Part shown: positions 363-62,690 of the stretch, piece by piece
Position numbering within the stretch: the stretch's first letter is position 1
How the letters are laid out: every line of letters starts with the position of its first letter
IMG/VR virus record: IMGVR_UViG_3300043959_000228
DNA length: 64,000 nucleotides
Strand: one strand, 5' to 3'
From: a virus
Lineage: Duplodnaviria; Caudoviricetes
Made by a program: the position numbers and the translations under genes
Notes under the pieces: generated by a model
Databases searched by the model: none
Told to the model about the DNA's origin: nothing
What the model saw: only the letters and a program-made list of their open reading frames with translations

Positions 363-382
363 GCGTCTTGATATCTAATTAT
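363..382 (+). promoter_or_regulatory. class II (GATATCT) promoter element, 20 bp identical to 41051..41070
   Basis: GCGTCTTGATATCTAATTAT occurs at both sites, each upstream of a gene. Confidence 0.65.
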
Positions 383-416
383 TGTAATAGCCAATACCTA
401 ATTAAAGGAGATCATC

Positions 417-1004
417 TTGTCAGATTATCAGGATAACGTATTCAATGAAACCAACGATCAGCAGGGTGACGCCTTATCATTTGACGTTCCAGACGAGGTA
501 TCCCATGATGTGTCCGACCAGCCTAAGAAGAAATCATCTAAGAACACGAAGAGGGTCATTAGAAAGGCGAATATCACGCCTCAGGCTGTAGAAGCCGTAT
601 TAGCTTGGCGTGATCGTTTAGAGTCAGCTGATGATCGTACGAAGAACTTAGCTGCGGAATTATTGAATCTTAAGAATACTGATGAATCGAAATTCATTTC
701 CGCTCTTATGGATAATGATACTGTGGCCATGGCGCGTAAGAGCATTAGTGAGGCGTTTGAATTATCACGATTATCAGATATGGGATTCGCCGTCGAGGTG
801 GCTAAGGTTGATCGTACCGATCGTAGGGATCTCTGGGATCTAGAATCGAAGATTGATCCCGAGCTGGCGAACGTGTTAACGAATGGATCTAATAAGCTTC
901 CTGTGAATGACCTTTATGAAGAAGTCAATCTTCTTCGTAGGATGCAGAAGGAATCAACAATCTTTAAGGACACGCTAGATGCTGTTACCGATCTTCTAGG
1001 ATGA
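417..1004 (+). CDS. hypothetical protein
   Basis: 195 aa ORF with TTG start and AAGGAG RBS. Confidence 0.75.
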   Translation: MSDYQDNVFNETNDQQGDALSFDVPDEVSHDVSDQPKKKSSKNTKRVIRKANITPQAVEAVLAWRDRLESADDRTKNLAAELLNLKNTDESKFISALMDNDTVAMARKSISEAFELSRLSDMGFAVEVAKVDRTDRRDLWDLESKIDPELANVLTNGSNKLPVNDLYEEVNLLRRMQKESTIFKDTLDAVTDLLG

Positions 1005-1056
1005 TGTTCCGGGCATGACGGTATTATGAGGAATACGATGAAGGAGAGAACATATT

Positions 1057-1848
1057 ATGGCAGAAGCATTGACTGATCGACAGAAAGAGTTAATTCGTCG
1101 TAGACGACGTGTGGCTAGACTGGTGTCATCAGGCAAGTCTAAAACTGATGTCGCTAAGAGTTTGAGTATTTCGACGCAGACGGTTACCCGAGACCTTCTC
1201 TGGATTAAAGAGCATGAATCGGAAAGACTCACGGCTAAGCCTAAATCTAAAACAAAGAAAACGCCTACTCGTAAGAAGAGTGGCGCTCACTCATCGGTAT
1301 CATCTACTCGTCCAAAGAAGACCGCGTCAGAAAAGATCGTCCAGAAAGACGATAATGACACTACAGCCTCAGACGTACAGAACCGCCGGTCTAACGGATC
1401 GGTAAAACCACCCGTACAATTACAGGTACGTGATGATAAAGACGAATCTGAGGCCGTTACAGAGTCTTTTAGAGCCATTCCACAGCAATCTGAGGACGGA
1501 TTTGATGAAGACGAGTCACAGACGTTCTCTGATGAGTTCAAGAAGACCATGAATCTCCTTGCTGACACGAAGCATACATCAGATTATCCAGATGTGCTGA
1601 CCTGGTGGAAGAATGATTCTAGTACACCATCAGAAGCCGCAGAGGGCGAGAAGAGTTATGCTGACGCGACTCATTCAGACCTCAAATCAGCGGATCGAGA
1701 GGCCGATGCAATAGACGCCTTTAACGCTATACCCGATGAGGATAAGTATGTGTACATGAAACATGAAGTGCAGGCCGCAAGATTGAGTGTTATTATCGGC
1801 GGTGTGTTCATAGGCTTAATTCTTTTTATGTTCTCAATGCTTTCATAG
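1057..1848 (+). CDS. HTH-domain protein with low-complexity linker and C-terminal TM helix
   Basis: RRRRVARLVSSGKSKTDVAKSLSISTQTVTRDL HTH, hydrophobic C-terminus, AAGGAG RBS. Confidence 0.7.
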   Translation: MAEALTDRQKELIRRRRRVARLVSSGKSKTDVAKSLSISTQTVTRDLLWIKEHESERLTAKPKSKTKKTPTRKKSGAHSSVSSTRPKKTASEKIVQKDDNDTTASDVQNRRSNGSVKPPVQLQVRDDKDESEAVTESFRAIPQQSEDGFDEDESQTFSDEFKKTMNLLADTKHTSDYPDVLTWWKNDSSTPSEAAEGEKSYADATHSDLKSADREADAIDAFNAIPDEDKYVYMKHEVQAARLSVIIGGVFIGLILFMFSMLS

Positions 1849-1858
1849 GAAGGATGAT

Positions 1859-2716
1859 ATGCAAGACGATTGGTCTGAGGAAAGCCCTGCGTCGTGGAAG
1901 AGTTCTTGGATAGAAGACGATGAGAACGATGATGAGCCTGAATTAAGTGTCAGTCACGAGTACTATGATTTAGACGCAGCGGCCGGTATGCCCATATGGG
2001 TAGACGAAGACACATTAGAATTCATCTTCTCCATTAGGTATAACTCTCCGGCATTCGATGGATCACTCCTTCAGGAAGACTATCGAATTATGGCTCATAA
2101 GGCCTTCTCAGACCTTATCATTGATCTTATCAAGCAGAAGCTGAAGATGATGGCCGCACGACCAGATCTTTATGACATGAATAAGATGCGTGACCGAAAA
2201 TATAATCTCACGACTATTAACACTGACAATATCATTGATATTGCTAAGAGTATGGGTATCAATCCCACGAAGACATCCGTTTTGACATTGGTCGCTGATG
2301 TGACCAGCGCATTAGAGAAAATTGTCATGCGGTCAATATCAGAAAGACCGGGCATGAATACTGCTGATAAGAATCTTGCTAAGAGTTTCTTGGAGAATCA
2401 GTTATGGGATGAAGACGCGCAATTACGATGGAGAGCAGTTCACGCTCATACATTAGCGGCCATGTATTCATATGACGCCTTACCTAAAAGCATTAAAATC
2501 CTCCATCATCTTGATGATTACATTCTTAGTGAAATGCACGATGGATCATTACAAGCGGCCAATCTTAATGTGACCTTTATGGACGCCTATCTTAATGACG
2601 ACGTTGTTCTCTATGTATTAGAAAGATTAGGTGACCCATATGATACGCGTGATGATGACATGATTATTGATGAGGCCATAGAGGATGTACGAACCGGGGA
2701 ATGGCAGGATTTCTAA
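1859..2716 (+). CDS. hypothetical protein
   Basis: 285 aa ORF with RBS, directly after the previous gene. Confidence 0.75.
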   Translation: MQDDWSEESPASWKSSWIEDDENDDEPELSVSHEYYDLDAAAGMPIWVDEDTLEFIFSIRYNSPAFDGSLLQEDYRIMAHKAFSDLIIDLIKQKLKMMAARPDLYDMNKMRDRKYNLTTINTDNIIDIAKSMGINPTKTSVLTLVADVTSALEKIVMRSISERPGMNTADKNLAKSFLENQLWDEDAQLRWRAVHAHTLAAMYSYDALPKSIKILHHLDDYILSEMHDGSLQAANLNVTFMDAYLNDDVVLYVLERLGDPYDTRDDDMIIDEAIEDVRTGEWQDF

Positions 2717-2795
2717 TTAGACGACATCGTTTTCGTGAATATGATATAATATCGATACGATGCTATGATTATCGTAATAGGAAAGGATACGATCG

Positions 2796-3443: not shown

Positions 3444-3536
3444 CAGCGTAAGACCTTTCAGCCTATGGCGTGTCTAATCGCGCGTATATGATACAATAGA
3501 TTCTACTATCAAATACTGATAAGATGGAGATGTATC

Positions 3537-4076: not shown

Positions 4077-4328
4077 GCCGTAGTCCGACTAGCCGGTTTC
4101 CTATAATCCATCATCCGATGATACAATAGTATGGTTCCATATAGGATGATTGGAGAGAAGAATGCCTAGAATGCAGTATCGGCCGCAAGGCGGACATGAT
4201 CGAGAGCACAATCAGCAGGAGAGGATTAGCGTGAATGGAAACAGTATGATGTCATTTGTCACATCATCGAATACAATTACTATTCCGCTCGTCAGCGTCC
4301 TTGAGTTCATGATGGGATCTAAGCGATT

Positions 4329-4814: not shown

Positions 4815-4909
4815 TAGGCTTAGATGGTAACAGTTGTAACGATATCTACCATACAGTGGTATAATGCTATTATAGTTGATGACGTTGATTCACATAAGGA
4901 GAATTATAG

Positions 4910-7069: not shown

Positions 7070-9478
7070 ATGGTGCGTAAGAAGAAGAATCATAGTGAAT
7101 TGACGGAGGAATCCCGTCTGAAATTCACGAAGGTCGCTAAGAATCTACAGGTTGTGTCGACACAGGACTGGTTGAAGACGAACTTCATTCCCTATGCCTG
7201 GTCATACACACTTGACCGAGCATTAGTTGATGTCTCCGGATTGAAGCCAGTGCAACGTAGAATTCTGTATACCATGTTCAAAAGGGGTCTCAGCCCGACC
7301 AGTAACAGAGTCAAGGTGGCGACGTTAGGCGGAGCGGTGCTGCAATTCCATCCTCACGGTGATGCGTCGGTCGTTCAGGCTCTGAAGAACATCGAACGAA
7401 AACACATTTTCAGGGTGCCATTAATCGATGGTAAGGGAGATTTTGGATCCATCGGTATGCCCGGCGCCGCTGGTCGTTATATCGAGGCTCGACTGTCTAA
7501 AGCTGCTTGGTTGAACGTTGAGGATATTAGCCAGAACGCTGTAGAAATGATCCCCAATTATGACAATACAACAGTTGAGCCAAAGCGTATTCCCGTCAAA
7601 TGGCCTGTTGGCGTCATTAACGGTGGATCTGGAATGGCTATCGCTTACGCGTCGAAGATTCCATCTCATAATCCTGGTGAGATTATGAAGGCGTGTATCG
7701 AATTAGTTAAGAATCCAAACGCAACGCATAGGAAATTAGAATCGATTATTAAGGGTCCTGACTTCGCTATGGGTGGTGTTATTGTCAGTAATGATGGTAT
7801 CAAGGATTATCTAGAGACTGGTTCTGGAACGTTCACGCTGAGATCAAAGTATGAGCTCATACCAATGAAGCGTGGCGCGTATCGAATCGAATATTATGAG
7901 ATTCCATTCGGTACGAATCCTGAGAAGATTATTGAGGACATTCAGAAGCAAATGGATAAGGGGAATCTTAAGGAGATCTCTAATTATAAGAACCTTTCTG
8001 ATTTGAAGCATCCTGTCCGCATGATTGTTGAGGTGAAAGCCGGTTCTCAAATTAAGAAGGTCATTGAGGATCTCTTCAGGATGACCTCGTTGCAGATACG
8101 ATTCTCAGTGAATATGACGACCATCGTCAATAATCGTCCTGAACAATTGCCTATGAGGGATATCCTATTAGACTTTATCGAATTCAGAAAGCTATGCATT
8201 GTTAATAAGACCAAATACATCCTTTCTAAAAAGCAAGACCGCCTCCATCTTATTGATGGATTAATGAAGGTTCTACTAGATATTGACGCTACCATCAAAA
8301 TTATTCGTGGTGCAGACAATGTGGATATTGCTCGTGAGAAACTGGCGAAGAAATTCCATATTGATGATGATCAAGCGAATTACGTCCTGTCATTGCAATT
8401 GCGTCGATTGACGAAGATGGATAAGCTAGAGTTGAATAACGAACACGATCAGCTGATTGACGAGGTTACATCAATGACTGATCTTATCAGTGACGGCACA
8501 AAGCTGAACGATTATCTTATCAAGGAGTTCAAGGAGACACTGAAAGTCATTGACGATGAACGCTGTACGGAGATTTCTGATCTCAGTGACGAGGAGTTCA
8601 ATAATCAAAAGACGACAGAGGTCAAGCAGATGAAAGCCGCTGGTAAGGGTGTGAAGACCTACGTGTACCAATTAGCTGACGGATCAATCTTCAAGACTCC
8701 GGTGAAACTGTCCACGGCAAAGGATCTAGAACAATCTAATCCTAGTCTTAAAGCCACGCCAATCACGTCAATGATGACCATGCCAGGTAATGCTGACATG
8801 GCTGTCCTTGATTCATCTGGACAGGCTTACACAACAAGCTTGCTCAGTATCGAGGATAATAAGAGCATCGACTTGAAGAAAAGTGGACTTCATCCTAATA
8901 AGCACACTAAGCCATTACTTACCATTGGTGATGGAGAATCAACGATCCTACTGGTAACGAAGACAGGAAGAACCAGACATATTAAGGTAGACAATGTCGG
9001 TAAGTGGTCTTCTACTGATGTCGTTAAACTAGATGATGGGGATGATATTGTTGGAGCTGTTGACACGTCGTCAGCAGTCAAGGGGTCAACGGTTATTATG
9101 GTTAGTAAACGTGGTAAGGTTCTACGATTCCCTCTAGATACATTGAAACCCTGTAATGCTGGATGTCAGACTGTAGCCGGTATGAGATTAGGTAAGGGTG
9201 ACGAGGTTGCATCAGTGACTATCGCTCGTCCAGATGCTGAGGTTATTGTAACGACATCAAGTGTGACGGCTAAGGCTACGCCAGCGAAAGATATTCCCGT
9301 CCAGAGTAGAGGTGGCGGCGGATCTAAGTTGCATCCAATCCTTGCTACTGATAGTATCGATCAGCTAGCCGTTGATCCAGTATTCGTATATCATGGTAAG
9401 ATTGTCCCTGCACCAGCGCCATCAGCTAGAGCAAGTCGTCCAGCGCCAATGCGAAAAGGCACCTTATTGTCTATGTGA
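7070..9478 (+). CDS. gyrA: type IIA DNA topoisomerase subunit A (GyrA/ParC family)
   Basis: GLKPVQRRILY, HPHGD, catalytic RY (AAGRYIEARL), IPSHN, LQLRRLT and a beta-pinwheel-like CTD. Confidence 0.95.
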   Translation: MVRKKKNHSELTEESRLKFTKVAKNLQVVSTQDWLKTNFIPYAWSYTLDRALVDVSGLKPVQRRILYTMFKRGLSPTSNRVKVATLGGAVLQFHPHGDASVVQALKNIERKHIFRVPLIDGKGDFGSIGMPGAAGRYIEARLSKAAWLNVEDISQNAVEMIPNYDNTTVEPKRIPVKWPVGVINGGSGMAIAYASKIPSHNPGEIMKACIELVKNPNATHRKLESIIKGPDFAMGGVIVSNDGIKDYLETGSGTFTLRSKYELIPMKRGAYRIEYYEIPFGTNPEKIIEDIQKQMDKGNLKEISNYKNLSDLKHPVRMIVEVKAGSQIKKVIEDLFRMTSLQIRFSVNMTTIVNNRPEQLPMRDILLDFIEFRKLCIVNKTKYILSKKQDRLHLIDGLMKVLLDIDATIKIIRGADNVDIAREKLAKKFHIDDDQANYVLSLQLRRLTKMDKLELNNEHDQLIDEVTSMTDLISDGTKLNDYLIKEFKETLKVIDDERCTEISDLSDEEFNNQKTTEVKQMKAAGKGVKTYVYQLADGSIFKTPVKLSTAKDLEQSNPSLKATPITSMMTMPGNADMAVLDSSGQAYTTSLLSIEDNKSIDLKKSGLHPNKHTKPLLTIGDGESTILLVTKTGRTRHIKVDNVGKWSSTDVVKLDDGDDIVGAVDTSSAVKGSTVIMVSKRGKVLRFPLDTLKPCNAGCQTVAGMRLGKGDEVASVTIARPDAEVIVTTSSVTAKATPAKDIPVQSRGGGGSKLHPILATDSIDQLAVDPVFVYHGKIVPAPAPSARASRPAPMRKGTLLSM

Positions 9479-9533: not shown

Positions 9534-9547
9534 GATATCTACATGTT

Positions 9548-10438
9548 ATGAATAATCGTGAACAGCCCTGTTGCACAACGCTTATACGTCGATGGGTCGA
9601 GTCGAAGATACGCAGTGAATCTGGATTTATGGGTATGACTCATGCTTTATCAGCAGTGGCTCTTCTTATGATTATCTTCGTTATGAGCCCCCATATCATT
9701 GCTAAGGCCTTGCATGGTGACACTCAGCCAGCGTATCTTATCCTCTTACTACTAGTTGCTGTTGGTGGGGCATTGATGCCTGATCTTGATAACACCAATT
9801 CATCGGCTAAATCTGCTTTAGGTGTTATTGGTGTTGGTATCAGTGGATTCATGAGATTCACCGCACCAGTCATTCAAGGACTGTTACATACTAAGTATGA
9901 TAAGGACTATGACAATCCGCATCGCGGTTTCTATCACACAGCTTTATCGTCAATACTCTTCGGAGGACTTACATGGTTGCTCTGTTCAGATATTATTGAT
10001 ATTCCAGTATCTGGATCATTCCATATTAATGGAAAGATGTTCGCTCTTATCATCGTGTTCATAGGATCCCATATTGCCCTATCGACACTTGGGAAGCCAA
10101 TCATGAAGAAGGTGTCTCATGCTGCTGGCGTCATCGGATTCATTATGCCGACACTATTGTCATTGGCCATTGTTGGCGTACTATGGTCACAATTATCGAA
10201 TGCTACTGATTATCGATCTGTAGGATTAGCTTTTGGATTAGGCTGGCTGATTCATATTCTCGGGGATATGTGTACGACACAGGGTGTCCCAGTACTCTTC
10301 CCCATCCCTATTAAAGGCAAGTTATGGTGGCATGTCCGTTTACTACCAATAAAAGCCGGAGGAGCAGCCGAGAATTATCTGTTCATACCAGCTTTTATCA
10401 TCATCATTGTTGCGTGCACAGTAATCCTATTACTATGA
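9548..10438 (+). CDS. YdjM-like membrane metal-dependent hydrolase
   Basis: THALS, MPDLD, HRGFYHT and HILGD...GVP motifs; multiple TM helices; leaderless start 7 nt after GATATCT. Confidence 0.85.
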   Translation: MNNREQPCCTTLIRRWVESKIRSESGFMGMTHALSAVALLMIIFVMSPHIIAKALHGDTQPAYLILLLLVAVGGALMPDLDNTNSSAKSALGVIGVGISGFMRFTAPVIQGLLHTKYDKDYDNPHRGFYHTALSSILFGGLTWLLCSDIIDIPVSGSFHINGKMFALIIVFIGSHIALSTLGKPIMKKVSHAAGVIGFIMPTLLSLAIVGVLWSQLSNATDYRSVGLAFGLGWLIHILGDMCTTQGVPVLFPIPIKGKLWWHVRLLPIKAGGAAENYLFIPAFIIIIVACTVILLL

Positions 10439-11490: not shown

Positions 11491-12465
11491 ATGTTAGCAT
11501 CAAATAATCACGCAAGCCCATCCTCACATCGTCAACCATTAGATGCAGATGACATCACCTTAATGCGTCTTGGTCATAAAGCGTCCGATGGATATTTCTT
11601 CACGCTAGATGAAGAGCTCTTCCTAGGTAAAATGATTAGATTATCGAGGACTGATTGTTCAGCGAGAGCAACACGAAGAGCCAGTAGAGCGAAACAATAT
11701 CTTGCACAGGCTAATCAACGATTAGTCTTTAAAATGGCTAATAAAGTCTATTCGAGTTATCCTAAAGGAACGACTCGTGAGGATGTCGTGTCCGCAGGAA
11801 ATCTAGGTCTCAGCAGAGCATTAGAAGATTATGATGATACCATGGGTAATAAATTGTCCACATATGCTACATGGTGGATCAGACATTATATTCAACGATT
11901 AGGTCATAAAATCGCTCGCATTGGTACTCTGCCTGATAGCAAGATTGGTATCATATCTGACGTTAAGAAGGAGACACTCCGCATTGAGGAGGAGGGCCGA
12001 TCAGTAACGAGTGAGGAAATGAAGACGATTCTCCAAACCCATGGTATTGATGAGGCTGAGTACAATAAGATCATGTCATTCAACAATACGCCATTCAGTT
12101 TTGATGCGCCAGTATTCAACGATGATTCTACTGAGGCTTCTGAGGTGATGAATTATGATGATACTCGTAATGAAATTATGGGTACGCCATTGGAGACGCC
12201 TGAGGGATCAGCAATCAAGAATGATACGATCAGCATATTCAATAAGGCCCTATCAGAATTGACGCCACTACAACAATCTCTCATTAACATGTCGTATATT
12301 GAGGATCGGCCTATGGGCGTTAATGGAGAAATTAAAAGAACGCAAGCGTCAATCCGTAGGACTCTTGGCGTCACGAAATCAGTAGCTGAAAGAGAATTGC
12401 AGAAGGGTCTCGCTCATCTTCGCGAACAAATGACATCATATGGCTATGGACCAAATCAGGAATGA
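11491..12465 (+). CDS. sigma-70 family RNA polymerase sigma factor (RpoD/SigB-like regions 2-4)
   Basis: ANQRLV, GNLGLSRA and LSTYATWWIR motifs; SFDAPV; region-4 HTH; AAGGAG RBS. Confidence 0.9.
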   Translation: MLASNNHASPSSHRQPLDADDITLMRLGHKASDGYFFTLDEELFLGKMIRLSRTDCSARATRRASRAKQYLAQANQRLVFKMANKVYSSYPKGTTREDVVSAGNLGLSRALEDYDDTMGNKLSTYATWWIRHYIQRLGHKIARIGTLPDSKIGIISDVKKETLRIEEEGRSVTSEEMKTILQTHGIDEAEYNKIMSFNNTPFSFDAPVFNDDSTEASEVMNYDDTRNEIMGTPLETPEGSAIKNDTISIFNKALSELTPLQQSLINMSYIEDRPMGVNGEIKRTQASIRRTLGVTKSVAERELQKGLAHLREQMTSYGYGPNQE

Positions 12466-14802: not shown

Positions 14803-14966
14803 TAACGACCACGTTATATTCATCCTACGATGATCTCAGGACGACGGGAAAAGTTGTATTACAACACGATGTCAGATTATCTACGTAAGATTAATGATAC
14901 TGATATCTACTTCATCCTGAACCTATCTAATTACGATAATCAAACAATATAAGGAGTGCAACTACT

Positions 14967-15401: not shown

Positions 15402-15411
15402 CAATCATATT

Positions 15412-18004: not shown

Positions 18005-18041
18005 GATCATGTTAGAGGCGGCATCCTGATATATTCATATT

Positions 18042-20575: not shown

Positions 20576-20653
20576 GATAATACGATATCAATAGAATAGC
20601 TTTGCGTGAATATCTTCTATACGATATAATAAGTATTACATAGTGAGGAGGTT

Positions 20654-21535: not shown

Positions 21536-21588
21536 ACGATGAACGATATCTTACCCATATCGTAACAATTTCGATATAGGAGGTCATC

Positions 21589-22078: not shown

Positions 22079-23848
22079 TTGAAGAAGAAAAGAACGACGT
22101 CTATCACGACGGACACTATGTTGTTCTCAGGTGTAGGACTGCCGAAGATTGAGTATGATTTTCATCCATCGTATCCTATTACGGATGTGAAGATACCTTA
22201 TGCCATCGATGAGCCTTATGACGCTGATCATGGTTTGAGGAAATATGACGCTGAGGCCGATGAAGCGATGCGCGAGAGCATGAAGCAATTCGGGTTCATT
22301 GATCCTATCGTCATTACCGAGGATGGATCAATCATTCATGGTGTCCATCGACTTCTTGTGGCCATGGATCTGCAACAGGCGAAGGTGCCTGTTCTTATTA
22401 TTAAGAATTGGTATAAGACCCGTGATGAAACGCAATTCTATAACATCATTGCTAATAAGTTGAATGATTGGTCAACATGGCTAGCTCCGAATGTCGATAA
22501 AATTCTGAGATCAGTTGACGGTGGCGTTAAGAACACGGTTATCAGAGGTGACGATGGCACATTCATTGTCGTGCCTGATGAAGCTGGTGAATATCGCGAT
22601 CTAGCGAAGAAATTAGGTCTCTTCGTTGATGTCATTCCCCATCAATTGTGCGCATCAACTGTTGATCTCTTGTTACTGGCTAAGATGCGTATTAAGACGT
22701 TAGGTCGTAGGTATCAGTATAACGATGAACAGATTCTGTATATTGAGACTCTTAGGGATCAGATTGATACGTATCGGAGAAAGGCAGTTGACGCTGGTCT
22801 TGATAAGACGTCTAATCTTAAGCAGAAACTCGATCAAATGAATATCTGGGATACGAATAATATGAATGATGGTATTGCCGTCGCGCGTATCGTCTTCCTA
22901 CACTCTATTGGTCTTCCTAATGAGCAGATCGCTGCTGAGGTTGGCGTTCCTGTTGATAATAAGGCTGACCGTGAGAAGGCCCGCGAAGCGAATATTAGTG
23001 CATTCATGGAGCAGGTCACCGTTGAAAACGCGATTATGAGATCGTCTAAACGACCGTTCGATCCTTTGCAATCATATGGTTACTGGATTAAGGAAACGTT
23101 AGTGTCTCGTCATGATGTTATGAAGGATCCTGAGGTAGAGGAAGCATTCCATCAGCTAGAATCCTTCAGAGTGTCAGCAGATCAAGTGGCTAACGAGGAT
23201 GGATTGATGCCTCCTTCAACCCGATTGGATCTGTCATCACCTGAGGCTAACGATCTTTTCCATAAGACCGTGGATTTGATTACGAAGAAGATATCGCGTA
23301 ACGATCAGGATGATCTTCCTCAGGCTGTTATTGAGGACTGGGTGAAATGGCCGGAGAAATTGAAGTTCTATGCTAACGAGTGCTTCAGAAACGTGATTGC
23401 TGTGGATAAGAAAGTTCATCCTAAGATTGCTAAGGTTAAGACACCTATGGATGTTAAGACTACACGTCAGACAACTGACAAGGCTTGCTCTAAACTGGAG
23501 TGGAATGAAATTCGCTACCTCGATGCTGTTTGTGATGGATCTATTGAGGAACCAGCCATTGATCTGAATTACGATTTGATTGCTGACCGTAAGGATCTGA
23601 GTGACGATGAGGCCTTAGCCCTGGTCGCCGCTGACGCTAATGCTCGTAGGGATCAGGAGATTGCTCAGTTACGGAAGACTATTGATCGTGAATCAAGCAA
23701 GATCTACGATTCGATGGTTGCTCGTGATTTTAACCAGATTCTCATTGATATTAGGGGTAAGTATAAGAAGGGTCCGTTGAATCTCTTCTCTACCGGACCT
23801 AATCGTGATGGGGACATGAGTGCAGATCCCGCATTGGATAAGAGGTGA
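22079..23848 (+). CDS. ParB/Srx N-terminal domain protein with a large unknown C-terminal region
   Basis: SMKQFGFIDPIVI..DGSIIHGVHRL..A..L...VPV..NKLN; TTG start with AAGGAG. Confidence 0.8.
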   Translation: MKKKRTTSITTDTMLFSGVGLPKIEYDFHPSYPITDVKIPYAIDEPYDADHGLRKYDAEADEAMRESMKQFGFIDPIVITEDGSIIHGVHRLLVAMDLQQAKVPVLIIKNWYKTRDETQFYNIIANKLNDWSTWLAPNVDKILRSVDGGVKNTVIRGDDGTFIVVPDEAGEYRDLAKKLGLFVDVIPHQLCASTVDLLLLAKMRIKTLGRRYQYNDEQILYIETLRDQIDTYRRKAVDAGLDKTSNLKQKLDQMNIWDTNNMNDGIAVARIVFLHSIGLPNEQIAAEVGVPVDNKADREKAREANISAFMEQVTVENAIMRSSKRPFDPLQSYGYWIKETLVSRHDVMKDPEVEEAFHQLESFRVSADQVANEDGLMPPSTRLDLSSPEANDLFHKTVDLITKKISRNDQDDLPQAVIEDWVKWPEKLKFYANECFRNVIAVDKKVHPKIAKVKTPMDVKTTRQTTDKACSKLEWNEIRYLDAVCDGSIEEPAIDLNYDLIADRKDLSDDEALALVAADANARRDQEIAQLRKTIDRESSKIYDSMVARDFNQILIDIRGKYKKGPLNLFSTGPNRDGDMSADPALDKR

Positions 23849-23852
23849 ACTG

Positions 23853-25025
23853 ATGAGCCCAGTATTTATTCCGAGTAAGGGTCGTGCATCTAATTGCAAT
23901 ACCCATCGTAACTTAGAAGCCTTCGATATGCATAATTGGGTGTATATCGTAGAGCCAGATGATTATTGGTCGTATATTCATCGTCTCCGTGATGATGGTG
24001 TCTACATGCCGGAGACGCATGTCTTCGCTTTCGATGTGGACAGGTTCAAGAGTCCTCGAAGTAAGAATCATCCTGATGGATTCGATTATTGTGACGATCT
24101 AGGATGGCGTCCAGGATTGACTACTGGACCTGGACCTGCACGTAATGCTCTGCATCAGCTAGCCATTGATATGGGTATTAAAACCTACTGGATGATGGAT
24201 GACGACATCGTATCATTCTCTATTGACGCCTTCTACTTCCAGAAGAACATTTGGACGAAGGATCTTGCTAATGGTGGCGTGAAGGAACGTCGTATGAGTC
24301 TTGTCGACATTTTCGATTTATATGAACGCTTCTTGGATAAATTTGATAACATTGGACTCGCTGAAATTGATAAGCAGGGATTGGTTCAGAATCATAGGAA
24401 GAACAGTCACTTCTCAGTGAACTGTAAGACCTATACGTGCATCAGATTCAGAACTGATGGCCCAAAGATTCCATGGCGTTCAAGATTTAATGATGACGTG
24501 ATGATCTCACTTGATTATGAGAAGAGAGGATTCGTGAACGTATCGAGCAAGATTCTCTCCTATCAGACACCAGACACACAGAAGCAGGCTGGAGGCATGA
24601 CTGAGGCCTTCCATCAGGAGGGAACGCTACGTAAGGTGAAGTATCTTGTCAAGCAGTATCCAGAGACGACGTTTGCTATTCTGAAATTCGGTAGGATTCA
24701 TCATTTTGTTGATTATTCAAAGTTCAGGCAGAGTCTTGTCAAGAAACTTGGACCCGAGACGATTGAGGACATCATGTCTCTATCGTTTGATCCTGATGGA
24801 TCGTTCCTGCCATATATGGAGGGCGTCACCAGCCAGGCTGATCTTGATGAACATTGGAGAAATATTGATGATGCTCTAATGAGACAATACATTCAGGATC
24901 AACAGGATGCAGGATTCCACTTCGGAGAGGGTAATAGGACGATCATGCGTAAGGAACTGTTAGATGACCCTGAGGCCAACGTCAAACAAGACGATGTCGT
25001 ATCTCAGGACGACGTCGAGTTTTAA
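23853..25025 (+). CDS. GT-A fold glycosyltransferase, phage GREB1/TET-associated (TAGT)-like
   Basis: PVFIPSKGRA, IVEP, GPGPARN, YWMMDDD, WRSRFNDD, TQKQAGGMT and KFGRIHHFVDY motifs. Confidence 0.75.
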   Translation: MSPVFIPSKGRASNCNTHRNLEAFDMHNWVYIVEPDDYWSYIHRLRDDGVYMPETHVFAFDVDRFKSPRSKNHPDGFDYCDDLGWRPGLTTGPGPARNALHQLAIDMGIKTYWMMDDDIVSFSIDAFYFQKNIWTKDLANGGVKERRMSLVDIFDLYERFLDKFDNIGLAEIDKQGLVQNHRKNSHFSVNCKTYTCIRFRTDGPKIPWRSRFNDDVMISLDYEKRGFVNVSSKILSYQTPDTQKQAGGMTEAFHQEGTLRKVKYLVKQYPETTFAILKFGRIHHFVDYSKFRQSLVKKLGPETIEDIMSLSFDPDGSFLPYMEGVTSQADLDEHWRNIDDALMRQYIQDQQDAGFHFGEGNRTIMRKELLDDPEANVKQDDVVSQDDVEF

Positions 25026-30347: not shown

Positions 30348-30700
30348 GGGGTCGAAATGGCATCGATTGACTCTTATAACTGAATAGTGCAGGCGATGGA
30401 ATAGTAGTAGTACCATCTAAAAACTATCTGCTAACAATAATAGCTGCTAATACCAGTTCTGCTTTCGCGCTAGCCGCGTGAGCCGTGGATATATGATGTC
30501 AACGCCTCATCATACTATCCGCGTCAATCTAGGCGTCGGGGGATGATTCTAGAACTCAGTCATCCTGGTTGTTGAGTTCACCATTGATATGATCATATGC
30601 GTGTCATCAATCCTATCATATCAACATTATTGATGAGAAAGCCTGTACATCACTATCAGGGCGAGAGAGCAAGACCCGGGTTCGAATCCCGGCGACTCCA
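30348..30700 (+). ncRNA. ssrA: tmRNA; tag (A)ANTSSAFALAA encoded at 30446..30481
   Basis: GGGGTCG/CGACTCC acceptor stem with G3-U, discriminator A, T-arm CCGGGTTCGAATCCCGG, and a tag ORF ending in ALAA-stop. Confidence 0.93.
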
Positions 30701-30803
30701 CTGTCATCTTGTATACATATGTGTACAAGATCAATATGGTGCAAGATCGTATATGCATATGGTACAATTCCTCATAGTAATAGCATCTATTAGAGGAGGC
30801 CTT

Positions 30804-32737: not shown

Positions 32738-32774
32738 ATGAATAAGATATAGGTGCTACACCTTAACATGCCGT

Positions 32775-34627: not shown

Positions 34628-34770
34628 CTAAAAGTTGTAGTAAATTGTATCACGTTTTTTATGGCGGTACAAAAGTGAACTTTTAGCTGTACCTCCTGCG
34701 GAGGGCCGCAGTCCCGAGTAAGATTCGGGTGATTGCGGCGGGAGCTCGACAATTTGCGAGCTCCTCTTTA
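34628..34770 (-). ncRNA. putative omegaRNA (reRNA) scaffold overlapping the tnpB 3' end
   Basis: Four consecutive hairpins at 34666..34764 inside the CDS tail. Confidence 0.55.
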
Positions 34771-36136
34771 CTAGCTGCTTAAATTCTTGTCTGATATGAT
34801 TACGGTAAGATTTGGGTATCCTCACCTGACGCGGCGTCGGATGCCTCTTCTTAAGTTTCAGGATTTTATTCCTAGTCCTGCGTTTGTTCCGAACGGCGAG
34901 ATTCACCGCGGCCAGGGTGTCCCGGTCAATGGTTTTACCATCACTGAAAGTAACGGTTCTCCCTGATTTGACACCCTTATCCAGCGTGACCTGGTGCTGA
35001 GAAGAGGAATTCATCGCTGAGACCCGCTCCACGGTGATACCAGCCCGCTCCGCGGACGCAACGATCCGCTCATGAATCTCGGCGTGATTCCATTTACCGC
35101 CCTGGGATTTCAGCCACCGTAAGTCTTCAATATGGATCGTTGAGCAGTGTTGCTGCTTCGCAACGCAAACCACGGCTCGGCCGACCAAGTTGGCTAATTC
35201 TTGATGCTGATTCGTGATTTTCGATCTTACACGATTATATTCTGTCAAGAGCGTGGCTTCCCGGCCCGACAGTGCCGGGTTCTTTAAAGCTCGTATCCTG
35301 GAGATTTTTTCGTAGAGAGAATCCTTGTTCCTCTGAAGACGGCGAATCTTGTCGGCCAGTCGTTTCAGGTAACGATTCTGTATGTATTCATTACCATACC
35401 GGCCGGACGGGTATAAGGCCACCGCACTGAAAATCTTCACTCTACCAATATCTACGCCCAGAATACCGTTGCCTTCCGTCCGGCCCGGTGTGTATTCGAA
35501 GGCACATGTACCGATGAGTCTTCCGTCTCTTCTGCGACGGAAGAACCGTGGCTTTGCAATTTTGCCTGTCGGCTTCTCACTCAACGTATACGGGAACAAA
35601 ATGTCGTAGTCAAGCCACTTCCCGTCAAGAAGTTGGATTCGACAGGATGTACCCGTGAGCGTGAAATTCTGTGGAGCACTCACCGTGTAATCGAGTTGAA
35701 ATGTAGCCTCGCGAGCCATCTCGGGTTTAAGTTTACCTGAAAGAATATTCTCTACGCGACCCGAGGTCGCGTAGATTCTATGCTTCTTAGCTAAATTATT
35801 AAAAAGCTCAGGCGTAATTTTATCGTCATTATTCTTCAACTCATCAAAAATGATCTGGTTCTCAATCTTCGATTGCACCTCACGCCTGATGTTCTCGAAC
35901 AACATGATCCCGTACCAGGCGCGATTAGAAATAGGCCAGGTCTTCACACGCGCGCCTAGTTTCTTATTCATCTCGCGCCAAACATTACCCCTGTGTTGGG
36001 TGTAATCCACGGAAGCGATGAGCTTCCGTGATTCCTCATCCGAGAGGAAGAAGATGAGTTCCTTCTGGAGGAAATCGTATAGGGGTAGTAATTCGTCAGG
36101 GAATCTGATGTTGAAGGCTAGCCAGTGTTGCTTCAT
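34628..36136 (-). CDS. tnpB: TnpB-like RNA-guided RuvC nuclease (IS200/IS605/IS607 OrfB type)
   Basis: RuvC triad GVDIG, IEDL and DRDTLAAVNL; GGAGG RBS before ATG 36136; composition differs from the flanks. Confidence 0.85.
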   Translation of the reverse strand: MKQHWLAFNIRFPDELLPLYDFLQKELIFFLSDEESRKLIASVDYTQHRGNVWREMNKKLGARVKTWPISNRAWYGIMLFENIRREVQSKIENQIIFDELKNNDDKITPELFNNLAKKHRIYATSGRVENILSGKLKPEMAREATFQLDYTVSAPQNFTLTGTSCRIQLLDGKWLDYDILFPYTLSEKPTGKIAKPRFFRRRRDGRLIGTCAFEYTPGRTEGNGILGVDIGRVKIFSAVALYPSGRYGNEYIQNRYLKRLADKIRRLQRNKDSLYEKISRIRALKNPALSGREATLLTEYNRVRSKITNQHQELANLVGRAVVCVAKQQHCSTIHIEDLRWLKSQGGKWNHAEIHERIVASAERAGITVERVSAMNSSSQHQVTLDKGVKSGRTVTFSDGKTIDRDTLAAVNLAVRNKRRTRNKILKLKKRHPTPRQVRIPKSYRNHIRQEFKQLVKRSSQIVELPPQSPESYSGLRPSAGGTAKSSLLYRHKKRDTIYYNF

Positions 36137-36289
36137 TCTTCCTCCAAACCTGTATATATATATTATATCAAGAATCACGATGATTGACGAGATTCAATAA
36201 TTGTTAACGATGATATCATGTATGTTACCATAAATATCAATTATAAGAAATTATTGTTATTATACCATTCAATGGCTGTCTTGTAGGTG

Positions 36290-37522: not shown

Positions 37523-37608
37523 ACAATATATTATATCATTCGATCTTAGGTCTTGATATCTTATTGTCACTACAGTAGAAGCACACCTGTACGAGAGGAG
37601 GATAGTTC

Positions 37609-39656: not shown

Positions 39657-39725
39657 ATGCTGTAGATATGGCTGAGAGTATATCTTATTTATGAAGATTA
39701 TAGGCTCTACTGATATAGGGGTATT

Positions 39726-40934: not shown

Positions 40935-41108
40935 GGCGTAATCAGTAATTAGAGTCACGCCATGCGATACTCAGCCGCGTAGTAATACGTTCTGAGTATC
41001 GCATTTTATATTAGTTAATCATGCCTAAAGATCATCATGACCCGTAAACGGCGTCTTGATATCTAATTATCAGCAACAAGGCATCAACTTCACGAAGAGA
41101 GGCACAGA

Positions 41109-46661: not shown

Positions 46662-46876
46662 TGTCATCCTTTGATTTAGACGTGTATGATCTGCATAGCT
46701 CTTAATGCAAACTATGATTACATAATAACACAATATTAGATATGTACAATTTTTGTCAATATGACTGGCGTGTCGAAAATCGTATCATCGTTCTAACGTT
46801 GACTGATATGCTATTCATCTTCTGTCATGGTACAATGATCCATATAATTAATCATTGATGTAGGAGGTCATGATTC

Positions 46877-50983: not shown

Positions 50984-51040
50984 ACACGATACACCGATAT
51001 CTTACTCATATCGTAGGAAACTTATCATTATGCTAAGGAG

Positions 51041-53454: not shown

Positions 53455-53506
53455 ATGGCGCATTATACCTACGGTAGAGTGACCTGTAATGGCATATCTA
53501 TATCAT

Positions 53507-57721: not shown

Positions 57722-57823
57722 CGTTTATATGACCCTGATATCTTTATTGCATGGGAACGTGCTTTTTGCGCGTTTCCACGGACAAAATAGAAACGCGCAA
57801 AAATCCATATGGAGGTTCCTACA

Positions 57824-58084
57824 ATGAAGGAATATTTTTCTGACAAGGTGAAGTCTGAGGACGGAGCTGAGACGATCGAGATCATCATCGGTATCGTGGT
57901 CTTCGTGGTCTTCGGTTTGACTGTGTTCGGAATGATCACCAAGGCCGGTGGCAACAAGGCTGCCAGCATTTCCAACTGTTTCGCTAAGTCAGGAAACATT
58001 TTGAGTCAGACATCTGACAACGCTAGCACGAAGACTACGTGCAACGATGACAGTGACACTGCCTCATACTCTTACAACAAGTGA
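57824..58084 (+). CDS. Flp/type IV prepilin
   Basis: Class III signal SEDG^AETIE with E5 and a hydrophobic helix; two Cys; GGAGG RBS. Confidence 0.8.
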   Translation: MKEYFSDKVKSEDGAETIEIIIGIVVFVVFGLTVFGMITKAGGNKAASISNCFAKSGNILSQTSDNASTKTTCNDDSDTASYSYNK

Positions 58085-58123
58085 GAGTAATCATTTAGAA
58101 GAGCCTCTCTTCTGAATGATGCC

Positions 58124-58163: not shown

Positions 58164-58217
58164 TATGCCCGACGCCGAGAAAGACCCAGGAAACGTATGG
58201 GCTGATATCTTTACCTC

Positions 58218-59132: not shown

Positions 59133-59214
59133 CACATTTTATCATCTATTGATATCCTAATCATGAACAGGTCATGAGAACCTATTAGCAGCAATCATAA
59201 AGGAGAGCCTCTAA

Positions 59215-60696
59215 ATGACATTCGACACTATTAAGAGTGAATTGCAATCACGAACGCAATTCAGCCACGTCACCTTCCGTCCTAGTAATAGTGACTTGGG
59301 TTTGTACGTAGTTCTCATCAAAGATGGGTCAATTGTTGGAGCGTATAACACTAACAATAAATTCAGAGCAAATATCAGAGCTGGGTTTAGTCTTGACCCA
59401 GAAATCGTCAAGACATCATTAGATCCAGGAGCTCTTCAAATCAAGTTAGCAGACGACCCTGAGACACTAGCTGATTGGAGGGAGAATTATCTGACAGAGA
59501 CGCTAGCTGAATTATCTAAGATCAACGATGTAGGTTTGACTATTGAGACCGATACTGAACCATTCACGTCAAACGAGGAGTCCATTCTCATTGAGCCTGT
59601 ATCCATTGAGGACATCGAATACGCCGTCAATGATGAGCTCAACGACATTGAGGCGGCTAATCGCAGAATCGGATTGAATGGTCTGCAGGATGTCACTATC
59701 AAGATAATTAACGATTATACGCCGTCAAGTGATGAACAGAAGTTCATTTATCTAGCTACGCAGACCAATGGCAAAAGCTTTAACGATATTCTGAAATTCT
59801 CTAATGGATTCCTATTAAGCAAACTTCTAGAATCAGCTGTAGCATTGACTCTGAATGGATCGATTGAATTTGCTGAGATCCTGTCTGACGGGTCAGTCGG
59901 TGAGAAAGTCGAAATCTCAGCTGAGAAGCCAGAGCCTAAAGTTGATGGTGATTCACTCAGCAAGTACGTTGATGATACGCTTGATGATGGATCTGACAGC
60001 AAGATGGCCGAAGCGATCATTAACGAGGGCCTTCAGGAAGAGGATTACCCTGAACACGATCAATCCAATGATATTCCGATTATTGATCTTCCACAGACTG
60101 ATGACGCCGAACAAGATGAAGAGGTACAGGAACCAGCACAGGTCGATCACAAGGATTCAGATGGTCAGCAATATGACGACGATCTGAGTGTGCCAGTACT
60201 CACGCCAGTTGACATGAATGAAACCGTTAGTGTCGATCAACTGTTACCGCAGGAAGCCGATGAGGATAATCATGAGGACACAGAGAATGCTGATCCAGAT
60301 GACGATTCAGAGGTTGAGTCTATGCTCGATAAGGTTGTTGATACTGCTGATCATGGAGACAATGTTGATGAATTAGTGTCATATGTCGAGCACGCTAAGC
60401 AGAAACTTGTCGAACTGAAGGATCGTAAGGAAGAGGTTGATTCAGACATTAACGACCTACCGGTTGAGGAAGCCGCCAAGATCGATAAGGAGATTGACTC
60501 CTTGAAGGAGGATCGACTCGAATTAGATCGAAGAATCACCGATCTTCGAGCCCAGAAATCAGATATCGATAGTCAGATATCTGACGCCCGTCAAAGGAGA
60601 TCTGATGTTGACGAGGCTCTATCCCATAAGGATGAGTTAGAGGCCGAACAGGCCGAGCTATCTGATAAGATCTCATCATTGGAAAGCGTTCTCTAA
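59215..60696 (+). CDS. acidic protein with a C-terminal coiled coil
   Basis: 493 aa ORF, AAGGAG RBS, heptad pattern at the C-terminus. Confidence 0.75.
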   Translation: MTFDTIKSELQSRTQFSHVTFRPSNSDLGLYVVLIKDGSIVGAYNTNNKFRANIRAGFSLDPEIVKTSLDPGALQIKLADDPETLADWRENYLTETLAELSKINDVGLTIETDTEPFTSNEESILIEPVSIEDIEYAVNDELNDIEAANRRIGLNGLQDVTIKIINDYTPSSDEQKFIYLATQTNGKSFNDILKFSNGFLLSKLLESAVALTLNGSIEFAEILSDGSVGEKVEISAEKPEPKVDGDSLSKYVDDTLDDGSDSKMAEAIINEGLQEEDYPEHDQSNDIPIIDLPQTDDAEQDEEVQEPAQVDHKDSDGQQYDDDLSVPVLTPVDMNETVSVDQLLPQEADEDNHEDTENADPDDDSEVESMLDKVVDTADHGDNVDELVSYVEHAKQKLVELKDRKEEVDSDINDLPVEEAAKIDKEIDSLKEDRLELDRRITDLRAQKSDIDSQISDARQRRSDVDEALSHKDELEAEQAELSDKISSLESVL

Positions 60697-60731
60697 ACAC
60701 TGAGATTCCTTAATTAGATAATGATGAAGAG

Positions 60732-60773
60732 CATATGGCTCCATGGTGACAACAACGACCATGGAGCCATATG
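60732..60773 (+). terminator. hairpin/terminator
   Basis: CATATGGCTCCATGGT / ACCATGGAGCCATATG. Confidence 0.7.
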
Positions 60774-60795
60774 ACGATAATAAAGAGGTCGTACT

Positions 60796-61446
60796 ATGGA
60801 TGAAGATGTAGAACCAGTATACATTAACGTATACACGAGTTTCTTCAAGAAGGATCTTCAGATCTATGCTCTGGGTGATATTCGATTCCAAAAGCCTAAG
60901 AGTATTAAGGCCGTTGGATACACGATTATTCTTATGGCTATCTGGTCATTACCAATGTTAATGCTCATTGGGGCTGACAGAGTATTGTCAAATGTCGTGT
61001 GGACCACCATCGTTGTTGGACCACCAATTCTTTTAGGTATGGTCATGAGTAAACCTGTATTCCATAATAAACCTCTCATAAAGGATCTCGTCAGTATCTT
61101 CAGATACGTTGGACAGGCTAGGAAATACACTGATTTTGTCTCCTATGATTATGGAAAGGACGTCTCAACGAATTTTTCCTTATGGACCGCTGATTGGGAT
61201 TGCTACGGCCAAGAGGAGAAGGATTTTGATGAGCCAGATGGAGGACTACGATCAGCGAAATCACTACGCCGGTCTATGAAACATCAGTCTGTAAGAGCAC
61301 CTAAACAAAAGGCGGCTAAAAGACAGAAACCTCCACGCAATCATAAACAGAAGTCAGATCGCCCGTTGGCTATTCCGTTGAATGATTCGGCGCGAAAGTT
61401 AATAAACGATGCTCAAATAAATCACAATCAATCGGACAATGCATGA
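60796..61446 (+). CDS. TcpE/VirB3-like conjugation membrane protein
   Basis: YTSFFKKDLQIYALGDIRF, two TM helices and KP motif, directly upstream of the VirB4-like ATPase. Confidence 0.65.
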   Translation: MDEDVEPVYINVYTSFFKKDLQIYALGDIRFQKPKSIKAVGYTIILMAIWSLPMLMLIGADRVLSNVVWTTIVVGPPILLGMVMSKPVFHNKPLIKDLVSIFRYVGQARKYTDFVSYDYGKDVSTNFSLWTADWDCYGQEEKDFDEPDGGLRSAKSLRRSMKHQSVRAPKQKAAKRQKPPRNHKQKSDRPLAIPLNDSARKLINDAQINHNQSDNA

Positions 61447-61466
61447 TATAGACATATCTACATCAT

Positions 61467-62690
61467 ATGAGTAATGATAAGAAAACGACGCCATGGAAGG
61501 GCCCTGTCATTGGTTTGAATCAGCAGGGATATCCTACGCCAGTGTTTTTCGACACTCATACAGCAATTAATATGAAATCAAAATCTGGTGGCATTGTTAT
61601 TGTCGGTGCGCCTGGATCTGGTAAGACGCAATTAGGCGAATCATTAGCTGTCATGAGCGGACTCTCTGGTAAGAAGACTATCTATGTCGATCCGAAGAAC
61701 GACGCTGTGGGTCTGAGTGAATTGAAAGACGAGTTTGACGGTCATCTCGATATTAGGGATCTAAATAGTGGTAAGAAGGATGGATCAATGGATCCATTGA
61801 TTACAGAAATAGATCCAGCGAAGAAAGTTGCCAAGACACTGGCACTTATTGAGATTCTCGTCGGGGAACTAAGCGAAGAACAAAAGATATCCTTACCGCC
61901 AATTGTAACTGACGTTGCCTACGGCGATGACCCATCATTGACATTACTCGTCCAACGACTTCAACGTCATAAGGATAATGCATTAGCAGCCATTGGATCG
62001 ACTTTAAGAACAATGGAGATATCGAACCCCATCTCCGGATTACTCTTTAAACGATCGAGAGAGAAAACGGTCATCAAAGACTTTAACGATGGTCTTACCG
62101 TTTTAATCATCCTTGGACTCAAGATGCCATCACCAGGTTCAGATCCTAAGCAATATAAGTCCGAGGAGCGACTATCACTCGGCATTATGTATCTTATCGT
62201 CGAATTCCTTCTGAGCACAATGTCTGATCAGAATCATAAGCTTGAGCCTAAGACCATTCTTATTGATGAGGCTTGGGCGTTCATTGCCTCCGCTGCTGGT
62301 AGGAATGCTGTTAGCAGTATGTTCCGATTAGGCCGTTCCATGAATACAGCCTGCATCCTCATGACGCAGAATTTATCTGATCTTCAGGCACCTGGTGATG
62401 AATCGGAGAATAATTCATTATTGAATTCCGCTGTGACCAAGTTTGCGTTTAGGACAGACGATCCTAACGAAATCAAAAAGCTCTGTGAGAATTTAGGCAT
62501 TAGCTACGCTGCATTTGGAGAGCAATTCCAAGAATTAGAGTCAGGATGCTGTATTATGAAGGATTATTTAGGACGAGTAAGCAGAATATACATCATCCAA
62601 CAGAATGAACGATGGAAACACGCTTTTGAAACGAATCCATTGAAGAAGCAACAGCAACAGGAAGCCATTGCGTCACAGGAGGAAGAGTAA
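61467..62690 (+). CDS. VirB4/TcpF-like conjugative ATPase (ATPase domain only)
   Basis: GAPGSGKT, VDPKND, IDEAW, RLGRSMN, TQ and GCCIMKDYLGR motifs. Confidence 0.85.
   Translation: MSNDKKTTPWKGPVIGLNQQGYPTPVFFDTHTAINMKSKSGGIVIVGAPGSGKTQLGESLAVMSGLSGKKTIYVDPKNDAVGLSELKDEFDGHLDIRDLNSGKKDGSMDPLITEIDPAKKVAKTLALIEILVGELSEEQKISLPPIVTDVAYGDDPSLTLLVQRLQRHKDNALAAIGSTLRTMEISNPISGLLFKRSREKTVIKDFNDGLTVLIILGLKMPSPGSDPKQYKSEERLSLGIMYLIVEFLLSTMSDQNHKLEPKTILIDEAWAFIASAAGRNAVSSMFRLGRSMNTACILMTQNLSDLQAPGDESENNSLLNSAVTKFAFRTDDPNEIKKLCENLGISYAAFGEQFQELESGCCIMKDYLGRVSRIYIIQQNERWKHAFETNPLKKQQQQEAIASQEEE

Follow-up and report, generated by a model that had tools for sequence, protein, structure and literature searches.

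Many genes in the 64 kb window analysed here, a part of IMGVR_UViG_3300043959_000228, are preceded by the short word (T)(G/C)ATATCT(T). From sequence statistics and comparison, we consider it probable, though by no means certain, that this word is the -10-region element (approximately -15 to -7) of a distinct promoter class, lacking a -35 element, on uncultured plasmid-like conjugative elements of 0.3-0.5 Mb. RNA polymerase would melt the DNA at the TAT core, with the eighth base after ATATCT as the first one transcribed. At about a quarter to half of the sites (22 of 93 in the relative G001, 8 of about 20 in the window) the start codon would itself begin at this base, its A or G being the first letter of a leaderless mRNA that lacks a Shine-Dalgarno (SD) sequence. 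The remaining sites would give a leader of 12 to 100 nucleotides (nt), with an SD-like word before the start at about 60% of them. This class, termed class A, would head the genes of the Tad pilus, type IV secretion and a cell-wall hydrolase, many large uncharacterised genes and a few DNA enzymes. The replication and repair genes of the element would use ordinary extended -10 promoters, TGnTAnnAT, termed class B. As for the reader of the motif, we infer more weakly that it is one of two sigma-family proteins conserved on the elements, either the RpoD-like product of the gene at 11491 or a diverged sigma-like protein.

The parent contig of the window has 491,046 bp and originates from bioreactor sludge (four DNA runs). 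The window itself has 43-45% GC and is 91% coding. Genes were called by us as the longest open reading frames (ORFs), and 54 ORF-based calls were used for the upstream counts in the window. The comparison covers three elements: the window contig, G001 and G002. G001 (IMGVR_UViG_3300044557_000292; 419,707 bp, with terminal repeats, 49.5% GC) was reached via the YdjM-like protein and is syntenic with the window, with protein identities of 34-78%. G002 (309,534 bp, 35% GC) is a more distant relative, reached via a GyrA search. It shares with the window gyrBA, ydjM, virB4, tadC, the cpaE-like ATPase gene with its upstream neighbour (a homologue of the gene at 39726), SNF2, nucS and dnaE.

An earlier note on this DNA had listed 17 sites, and all of them are present, counted as 11 GATATCT, 3 CATATCT, 2 TATATCT and 2 one-mismatch variants (GATATAT at 18028 and GATATCG at 20577-20583, minus strand). 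Three sites were absent from that list: GATATCC at 59151 (before the gene at 59215), AATATCT at 20609 (before 20654) and CATATCT at 63472 (before 63537). Counted over the whole window, GATATCT is not over-represented, with 26 copies versus 24.6 +/- 6.2 in dinucleotide shuffles, which is the chance level; the case rests on its placement. An unbiased hexamer count over the sense strand, from -60 to -1 of the 54 gene calls, found ATATCT 13 times versus 1.3 expected (p 2e-9), in line with the note's observation that the motif lies just upstream of many genes. In this ranking the Shine-Dalgarno word AAGGAG is best, ATATCT comes next and TATAAT is lower (9 versus 1.1). Among 60 words of the same composition, ATATCT is first (16 versus a median of 3). 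In terms of intergenic placement, [GC]ATATCT has 12 sites versus 3.5 expected; 11 are aimed at a start within 150 nt, versus 4 when the opposite orientation is counted.

The same trend is stronger in G001. ATATCT is the top upstream hexamer there, above the Shine-Dalgarno word, with 83 occurrences versus 10.3 expected (p 1e-45). The full word TGATATCTT has 43 copies, 38 of them in sense and within 120 nt upstream of a gene, and intergenic [GC]ATATCTT sites number 62 versus 11.9 expected. Orientation is towards the gene in 60 cases, versus 16 antisense. GATATCT-N7-ATG occurs 12 times, and the reversed control not once. Class A precedes 103 of 404 genes in G001; what had been described as a second promoter class heads about a quarter of all genes and is the main class there.

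Next, we considered the geometry of the sites. The start codons at 9548, 18042, 20575(-), 32737(-), 39656(-), 53507, 58218 and 61467 do follow the motif after exactly 7 nt, and each is the first or a near-first start of a long ORF. Scanning distances of 0-30 nt from ATATCT to the starts of ORFs of at least 60 amino acids (aa) gave 6 cases at 7 nt in the window, with at most 2 at any other distance, and 20 at 7 nt in G001, with at most 5 elsewhere. The motif lies 7 nt before the first start of 6 long ORFs in the window, or 8 when the one-mismatch variants are included. In a search that did not presuppose ATATCT, no other hexamer was as frequent at this spacing ahead of the first starts of long ORFs. 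With the A of ATG as +1, the register reads T-15, S-14, A-13, T-12, A-11, T-10, C-9, T-8, T-7; the TAT core falls on -12 to -10, so that ATATCT would occupy the -10 position, as had been proposed.

The motif-to-start distances are two-peaked, being either 7 nt (16-22 sites in G001) or 19-110 nt. G001 has 22 leaderless and 71 leadered sites, and 43 of the 71 have an SD-like word before the start. Across the sites compared, such a word is present at 0 of 27 leaderless sites versus 50 of 82 leadered ones. That the leaderless starts are true N-termini is indicated by the orthologue alignments, which begin at or near residue 1 for the genes at 18042, 53507 and 58218.

From these arrangements we infer that ATATCT acts as a promoter and that transcription starts on the eighth base after it. 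At 61 leadered sites the seventh base is a pyrimidine in 50 cases and the eighth a purine in 45, a pattern read from sequence that agrees with the start position predicted in the earlier note. Leadered sites are independent of the leaderless set, and this pattern is the best available in silico support for that position. Aligned leaderless sites have their information confined to t-(G/C)-ATATCT-T, together with a G-poor spacer and a pyrimidine just before ATG. No -35 element (TTGACA at 16-18 bp) was found: there is no information upstream of -15, and the best match scores like background. Of 26 leaderless sites overall, 20 have T at -7. Among 122 sites in G001, 61 have T at -15, and at -14 there are 52 with G, 33 with C and 25 with A. 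The commonest form in G001 is TGATATCTT, with CATATCTT and AATATCTT likewise enriched.

The leaderless habit is not exclusive to this class. The starts at 7 nt with no SD word stand as described, but promoters of the TATAAT type have leaderless starts too. Both examples given earlier are present: TGATATAAT at 37530-37538 (minus strand), 7 nt before ATG 37522, which appears in G001 as TGATATAAT-N6-ATG, and TATAAT at 53462-53467 (minus strand), 7 nt before ATG 53454 (nucS).

Sequence statistics and comparison also support the separateness of the two classes and the coherence of the class A gene set. A at -13 and CT at -9/-8 go together in G001 (Fisher 5.5e-12), which bears out the proposed distinction from TGnTAYAAT promoters. 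Among TGnTAnnnT words upstream of G001 genes, A-13 occurs with CT in 39 cases, and another base at -13 with CT only once. The class B words enriched upstream are TGGTACCAT, TGTTATAAT and TGGTACAAT. The consensus of class A is distinct from the host type, with the TGnTAnnAT class assumed to be that of the host.

For the gene sets, first genes of G001 were selected for annotation by size and not at random: the 20 largest in class A and 10 large ones in class B. Class A includes FtsK/SpoIIIE, T2SSF, T2SSE, TrbL/VirB6, NlpC/P60, MoxR, Cse1, a DnaG-like primase and a HATPase protein, and the remainder are eleven proteins without a Pfam match, some of 1,000-2,400 aa. Class B includes DnaB, RecG, RecA, DnaX, a topoisomerase, Cas3, a TelA-like protein, an AAA_33 kinase and a DUF4379 protein. 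Taking the window and G001 together, transfer, secretion and cell-wall functions are found 9 times in class A (FtsK/SpoIIIE, two T2SSF, T2SSE, TrbL/VirB6, NlpC/P60, VirB4, TcpE and a CpaE-like protein) and never in class B. Replication, repair and recombination functions are found twice in class A and about 10 times in class B, with DnaB, RecG, RecA, DnaX, the topoisomerase, DnaE, GyrB, NucS and PIF1 among the latter. By our own hypergeometric calculation, p is about 2e-4 for these counts. The division by function that had been suggested holds for Tad, type IV secretion and envelope genes in class A and for dnaE, gyrB, dnaB, recA, dnaX and topoisomerase in class B, but class A is not a transfer-only set: it also includes the SNF2 helicase, the EEP (endo/exonuclease-phosphatase family) nuclease, YdjM, Cse1 and the DnaG-like primase.

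The class of a gene is mostly kept between orthologues. The motif is present at the G001 orthologue for 12 of 14 motif-bearing window genes versus 8 of 29 motif-less ones (odds ratio 15.8, p 7e-4), and ahead of the motif the two elements have an upstream DNA identity of only 30%, which is the random level. Classes are kept for dnaE (class B TGGTACAAT at 46828-46836, plus strand, in the window and TGGTACCAT in G001), gyrB, the 36290 gene (TGATATAAT, leaderless in both elements), nucS and 27366. The class is switched for 10484, 20654 and 3537.

Five leaderless arrangements in the window are conserved in G001, all on the plus strand. The site at 9534-9540 lies 7 nt before ATG 9548 of the YdjM-like membrane protein, with TGATATCC-N7-ATG in G001. 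GATATAT at 18028-18034 precedes GTG 18042 of the EEP protein, where G001 has GATATCT-N7-ATG. CATATCT at 53493-53499 precedes ATG 53507 of the SNF2 helicase, and G001 starts at the aligned residue after GATATCT-N7. The site at 58204-58210 precedes ATG 58218 of the TadC-like protein (T2SSF), with GATATCC-N7-ATG in G001. Finally, CATATCT at 61453-61459 precedes ATG 61467 of the VirB4-like AAA_10 ATPase, with CATATCT-N8-ATG in G001. Three more leaderless sites are on the minus strand, each 7 nt before its start: GATATCG at 20577-20583 (ATG 20575; no orthologue in G001), TATATCT at 32745-32751 (ATG 32737; not conserved in G001) and CATATCT at 39664-39670 (ATG 39656).

The leadered sites of the window are all on the plus strand. 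We found cttGATATCTa at 370-376, 40 nt before TTG 417 (SD aaaggag; GATATCT at the G001 orthologue), and cttGATATCTt at 37555-37561, 47 nt before ATG 37609 (SD; conserved in G001). Class A sites at 14902-14908 (58 nt before ATG 14967, with SD), 41058-41064 (44 nt before GTG 41109 of the ParA/CpaE-like ATPase) and 50996-51002 (38 nt before ATG 51041) are also conserved in G001, and a further one at 21545-21551 lies 37 nt before ATG 21589 (SD). TATATCT at 39679-39685 lies 40 nt before ATG 39726, the start of a gene that precedes the ParA/CpaE-like one and encodes a 402 aa protein without a Pfam match; G001 has cttGATATCTt. Among the variants, AATATCT at 20609-20615 stands 38 nt before ATG 20654, beside a TATAAT, with GATATCT at the G001 orthologue, and GATATCC at 59151-59157 stands 57 nt before ATG 59215, with cttGATATCTt in G001. 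CATATCT at 63472-63478, 58 nt before ATG 63537, is within the end of the upstream gene and is conserved, possibly via the coding sequence.

The site at 57737-57743 (plus strand) precedes the Flp-type pilin gene (57809-58084), and the motif is present in G001. Between motif and gene, the leader at 57751-57808 forms a long hairpin of -19.8 kcal/mol. The G001 pilin leader has a hairpin too (-26.9 kcal/mol) and shares GGGAACGTGC...GCGCGTT with the window; this may be a regulatory leader.

For gyrB, said earlier to have both promoter types, the GATATCT at 4841-4847 (plus strand) is doubtful. It is followed by an ordinary extended -10, TGGTATAAT, at 4857-4865, and gyrB of G001 has TGGTACCAT only. 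The 4841 site is not conserved in the relative and may be due to chance.

Some arrangements of class A sites were observed in passing. At 39664-39685 of the window two motifs stand back to back, 8 nt apart, between divergent genes. Another back-to-back pair is found at 113191-113274 of G001, where both divergent genes are leaderless and one encodes a MoxR ATPase. The FtsK/SpoIIIE piece of G001 (100859-101818) has a leaderless class A promoter.

In the distant relative G002, the top upstream words are TTGATATT and TGATATAA. The word tGATATT precedes the Tad genes, TGnTATAAT precedes ligA, dsbA and PIF1, and nucS has TGTTAATAT. No spike of leaderless starts at 7 nt was seen in G002. As far as the sequences compared indicate, only the branch of the window and G001 has the CT(T) extension and the leaderless habit. 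The GATAT core and the two-class layout recur across elements of 35-49.5% GC, which speaks slightly for a reader carried along by the element.

As for this reader, the earlier note had pointed to the sigma gene at 11491. A sigma-70-family gene is indeed encoded there by the element, but it is only one of two candidates. Its product, an RpoD/RpoS-like factor of a private clade and a candidate reader (11491-12465, plus strand), matches PF04542 with E 3e-12 and aligns to RpoD, SigA and RpoS over regions 2-4, far below the family cut-offs. The clade comprises six proteins; the contigs of three measure 349-491 kb and those of the other three less than 10 kb. The relatives on giant contigs are on those of 419,707 and 349,703 bp, and the next nearest proteins, after a gap, are ordinary primary sigmas at about 30% identity.

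The clade retains the melting residues, STYATWWIR. Compared with E. coli sigma-70, the readers of position -12 are replaced (Q437 to H, T440 to Q), as are the readers of the extended -10 TG (H455 to S, E458 to G or another residue) and those of the -35 (TRERIRQ to TKSVAER-like). The roles of these -12, TG and -35 residues in E. coli are reviewed in PMC2613000, and their replacement makes an altered specificity of the 11491 factor plausible. In E. coli, Q437H shifts the -12 preference from T to C (PMC2613000). The motif also changes from T to C between G002 (GATATT) and the window and G001 (GATATC), but this coincidence was not used, the variable base being at -9 in the leaderless register.

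The second candidate is a diverged sigma-like gene at 303754-304839 of G001, picked by a sigma-factor profile. Its sole match among solved structures is mycobacterial SigB, over regions 1.2-3.0 (E 0.1), and region 4 was not detected by profile. The gene adjoins tadA and has a leaderless class A promoter. The protein is kept in G002 (64271-65374) with 28% identity (E 5e-23), and NYLxQWI in the region 2.3/2.4 helix is common to both. G002 has homologues of both sigma types, the diverged one being better conserved (E 5e-23 versus 4e-11).

Several observations weigh against a class with its own reader. Only about half of the window sites have T at -7, and G002 has neither the CT(T) part of the motif nor the leaderless habit. 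No recognisable promoter was found in the 266 nt preceding the 11491 sigma gene, and the sigma gene of G001 has GATATCTT upstream, so that a simple cascade, with host polymerase acting first and the sigma factor afterwards, is not evident. With two candidate sigmas and only three elements, no sigma can be assigned to the motif. Furthermore, the motif differs from a good TGnTATnnT promoter only at -9/-8 and in its preference for A-13, and the primary sigma might therefore use it.

This last point leads to the possibility that a host sigma reads the promoter, either the primary factor, for which TGATATCTT would be a strong extended -10 variant, or an alternative factor exploited to time transfer, with the element sigmas serving otherwise. 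We hold this unlikely, though it deserves serious weight. TGATATCTT retains T-15, G-14, T-12, A-11, T-10 and usually T-7 of the canonical extended -10, TGATAT is common to both classes in the window, leaderless starts occur in both, and the sigma gene shows no cascade wiring. One degenerate specificity, however, would not readily give the coupling of A-13 with C-9/T-8 or the sharp peak on a single 9-mer, and it fits poorly with a gene's class being kept between orthologues and tracking function. The GATAT core is moreover found in elements of 35%, 44% and 49.5% GC, probably from different hosts, with the two sigma genes travelling along.

The perfect palindrome GATATC also invites comparison with KorA/KorB operators on IncP plasmids, in which case it would be the operator of an element-encoded global repressor or activator overlapping the promoters. 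Short intergenic gaps do hold many of the sites, and those at 39664 and 39679 form a back-to-back pair. The conserved word is nevertheless asymmetric, with T before and CTT after, and gene-oriented (60 sense versus 16 antisense in G001). It sits exactly at the -10 position of leaderless genes, which have no other conserved word to act as promoter, and it carries the pyrimidine/purine signature at a fixed downstream distance; an operator is accordingly improbable. We give still less credit to an unconventional ribosome-binding or translation signal inside a longer mRNA. A spacing of 7 nt is typical of Shine-Dalgarno elements as well, but here it is rigid at 7 instead of ranging from 5 to 9, and the same word lies 19-110 nt before about 70 genes; 43 of these carry their own SD-like word. 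ATATCT is also not complementary to the usual 3' tail of 16S rRNA (...CCUCCU), which weighs further against such a signal.

Mobile elements with their own sigma factor and private promoters are already well known. What would be new here is a giant conjugative element whose transfer, pilus and envelope genes share a common 9-bp promoter without a -35, often leaderless. In the register of the leaderless starts, class A would share T-12, A-11 and T-10 with the extended -10 promoter (TGnTATAAT), and its commonest form also the TG at -15/-14; like that promoter it would work independently of a -35, and its predicted start likewise follows the hexamer at 6-7 nt. It differs in that C-9 and T-8 are fixed rather than A/A, A-13 is selected, G-14 is replaceable by C and T-7 is dispensable in the window; by statistics, too, it stands apart from the TGnTAnnAT class of the same DNA. 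In Actinobacteria, Deinococcus and archaea, leaderless mRNAs have a -10 element fixed 6-7 nt before the start and no Shine-Dalgarno sequence. The fixed spacing and the lack of SD are alike here, but the habit is that of a mobile element in which strong SD words precede the other genes, and G002 does not have it.

Phage late promoters are another comparison. Those read by T4 gp55 have TATAAATA without a -35, and in using no -35 class A is similar. In the account of SPO1 given in PMC3601020, late promoters of the gp28 and gp33/gp34 cascade read CGTTAGA-N17-19-GATATT. The -10 word given there, GATATT, equals the core in G002 and is one base from GATATC in the window, but the present elements have no CGTTAGA partner at fixed spacing. 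If an element sigma is the reader, these elements would resemble SPO1 and T4 in redirecting the host core polymerase to private promoters; the difference is that the element here is conjugative and plasmid-like, not a lytic phage.

A link to SPO1 via CGTTAGA was rejected. GTTAGAT is enriched upstream in G001, but in several unrelated contexts and with no fixed spacing to GATATC. Part of the GTTAGA enrichment is explained by a repeat found at about 25 intergenic places in G001, TCTATGGCGCGTTAGAACGCrTCT... (e.g. at 121465, 123869, 276324 and 354560), within which there is a short palindrome.

Among plasmids, pBS32 of Bacillus subtilis has a plasmid-borne sigma factor, SigN (ZpdN), according to the account in PMC6751061. 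The likeness is that of a large plasmid encoding its own sigma-70-family factor. As far as that account goes, the differences are that the promoter set here covers about a quarter of a 0.4-0.5 Mb element, transfer and pilus genes included, and that the class has no -35 and is often leaderless. In addition, there are two sigma-like genes here, and their pairing with the promoter is only a candidate one. Literature searches by the motif words returned unrelated papers only.

In terms of meaning, the elements are among the largest plasmid-like replicons known and are uncultured, and a short promoter word that maps transcription units would divide many of their uncharacterised genes into two regulons. 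If an element sigma reads the motif, this would be a conjugative element running its transfer apparatus via a private sigma and leaderless mRNAs. Such a sigma/promoter pair would bear on host range and could serve as an orthogonal expression part. A fully self-contained expression system for transfer and envelope genes, with an own sigma, a 9-bp promoter lacking the -35 and starts placed on the start codon with no Shine-Dalgarno, is a more speculative proposal that we regard as doubtful. If true, the expression of conjugation genes would be largely independent of the host primary sigma and of ribosome-binding rules, which would help a 0.3-0.5 Mb element in distantly related hosts.

Homologues of GyrA (window 7070-9478) were found on dozens of contigs of 0.28-0.73 Mb, with 44-62% identity, which suggests that giant extrachromosomal elements of this kind form a broad clade, so far undescribed. 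For the VirB4-like, TadC-like and sigma proteins, no relative was found in the metagenome-contig and genome-contig collections scanned. The elements have replication genes of their own: gyrBA, dnaE and ligA in the window and, additionally, dnaB, dnaX and recA in G001.

The Pfam matches of the window include gyrB, gyrA, a YdjM-like membrane protein, the sigma-70-family gene (11491-12465), a NAD-ligase and TelA, followed by a TET-associated glycosyltransferase, DsbA, an ABC/FtsX pair, a PIF1 helicase and a TnpB/Cas12f-like gene. A ParA/CpaE-like ATPase, a NERD protein, dnaE, nucS, the SNF2 helicase, DUF6020, the T2SSF (TadC-like) protein, TcpE and the VirB4-like AAA_10 ATPase are matched as well. 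The TnpB/Cas12f-like gene (34628-36178, minus strand) is without an orthologue in G001.

G001 contains three large CRISPR arrays, at 419335-1146 (across the origin), 242156-244385 and 331033-333492, with a 29-nt type I-E-like repeat, a period of 62 and about 100 spacers in total. Its cas3 is at 250701-253508 and its cse1 at 249094-250704. An exact search of genome contigs with this repeat, aimed at the host, gave no match, and no repeat of this type is present in the window. One of the arrays terminates directly before the dnaE promoter. Words resembling the CRISPR repeat beside class B promoters were considered as regulatory sites and rejected, being the terminal repeats of real arrays.

Lastly, a transfer-messenger RNA (tmRNA) gene is found at 30348-30703 of the window, with the tag ANTSSAFALAA, and at 267185-267540 of G001, with the tag AAYNTSDFALAA. 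G001 also has a block of about 50 tRNA genes (306483-319944) in which nearly every amino acid is covered. The TET-associated glycosyltransferase of the window (23820-25025) is 78% identical in G001 and hints at hypermodified DNA bases.

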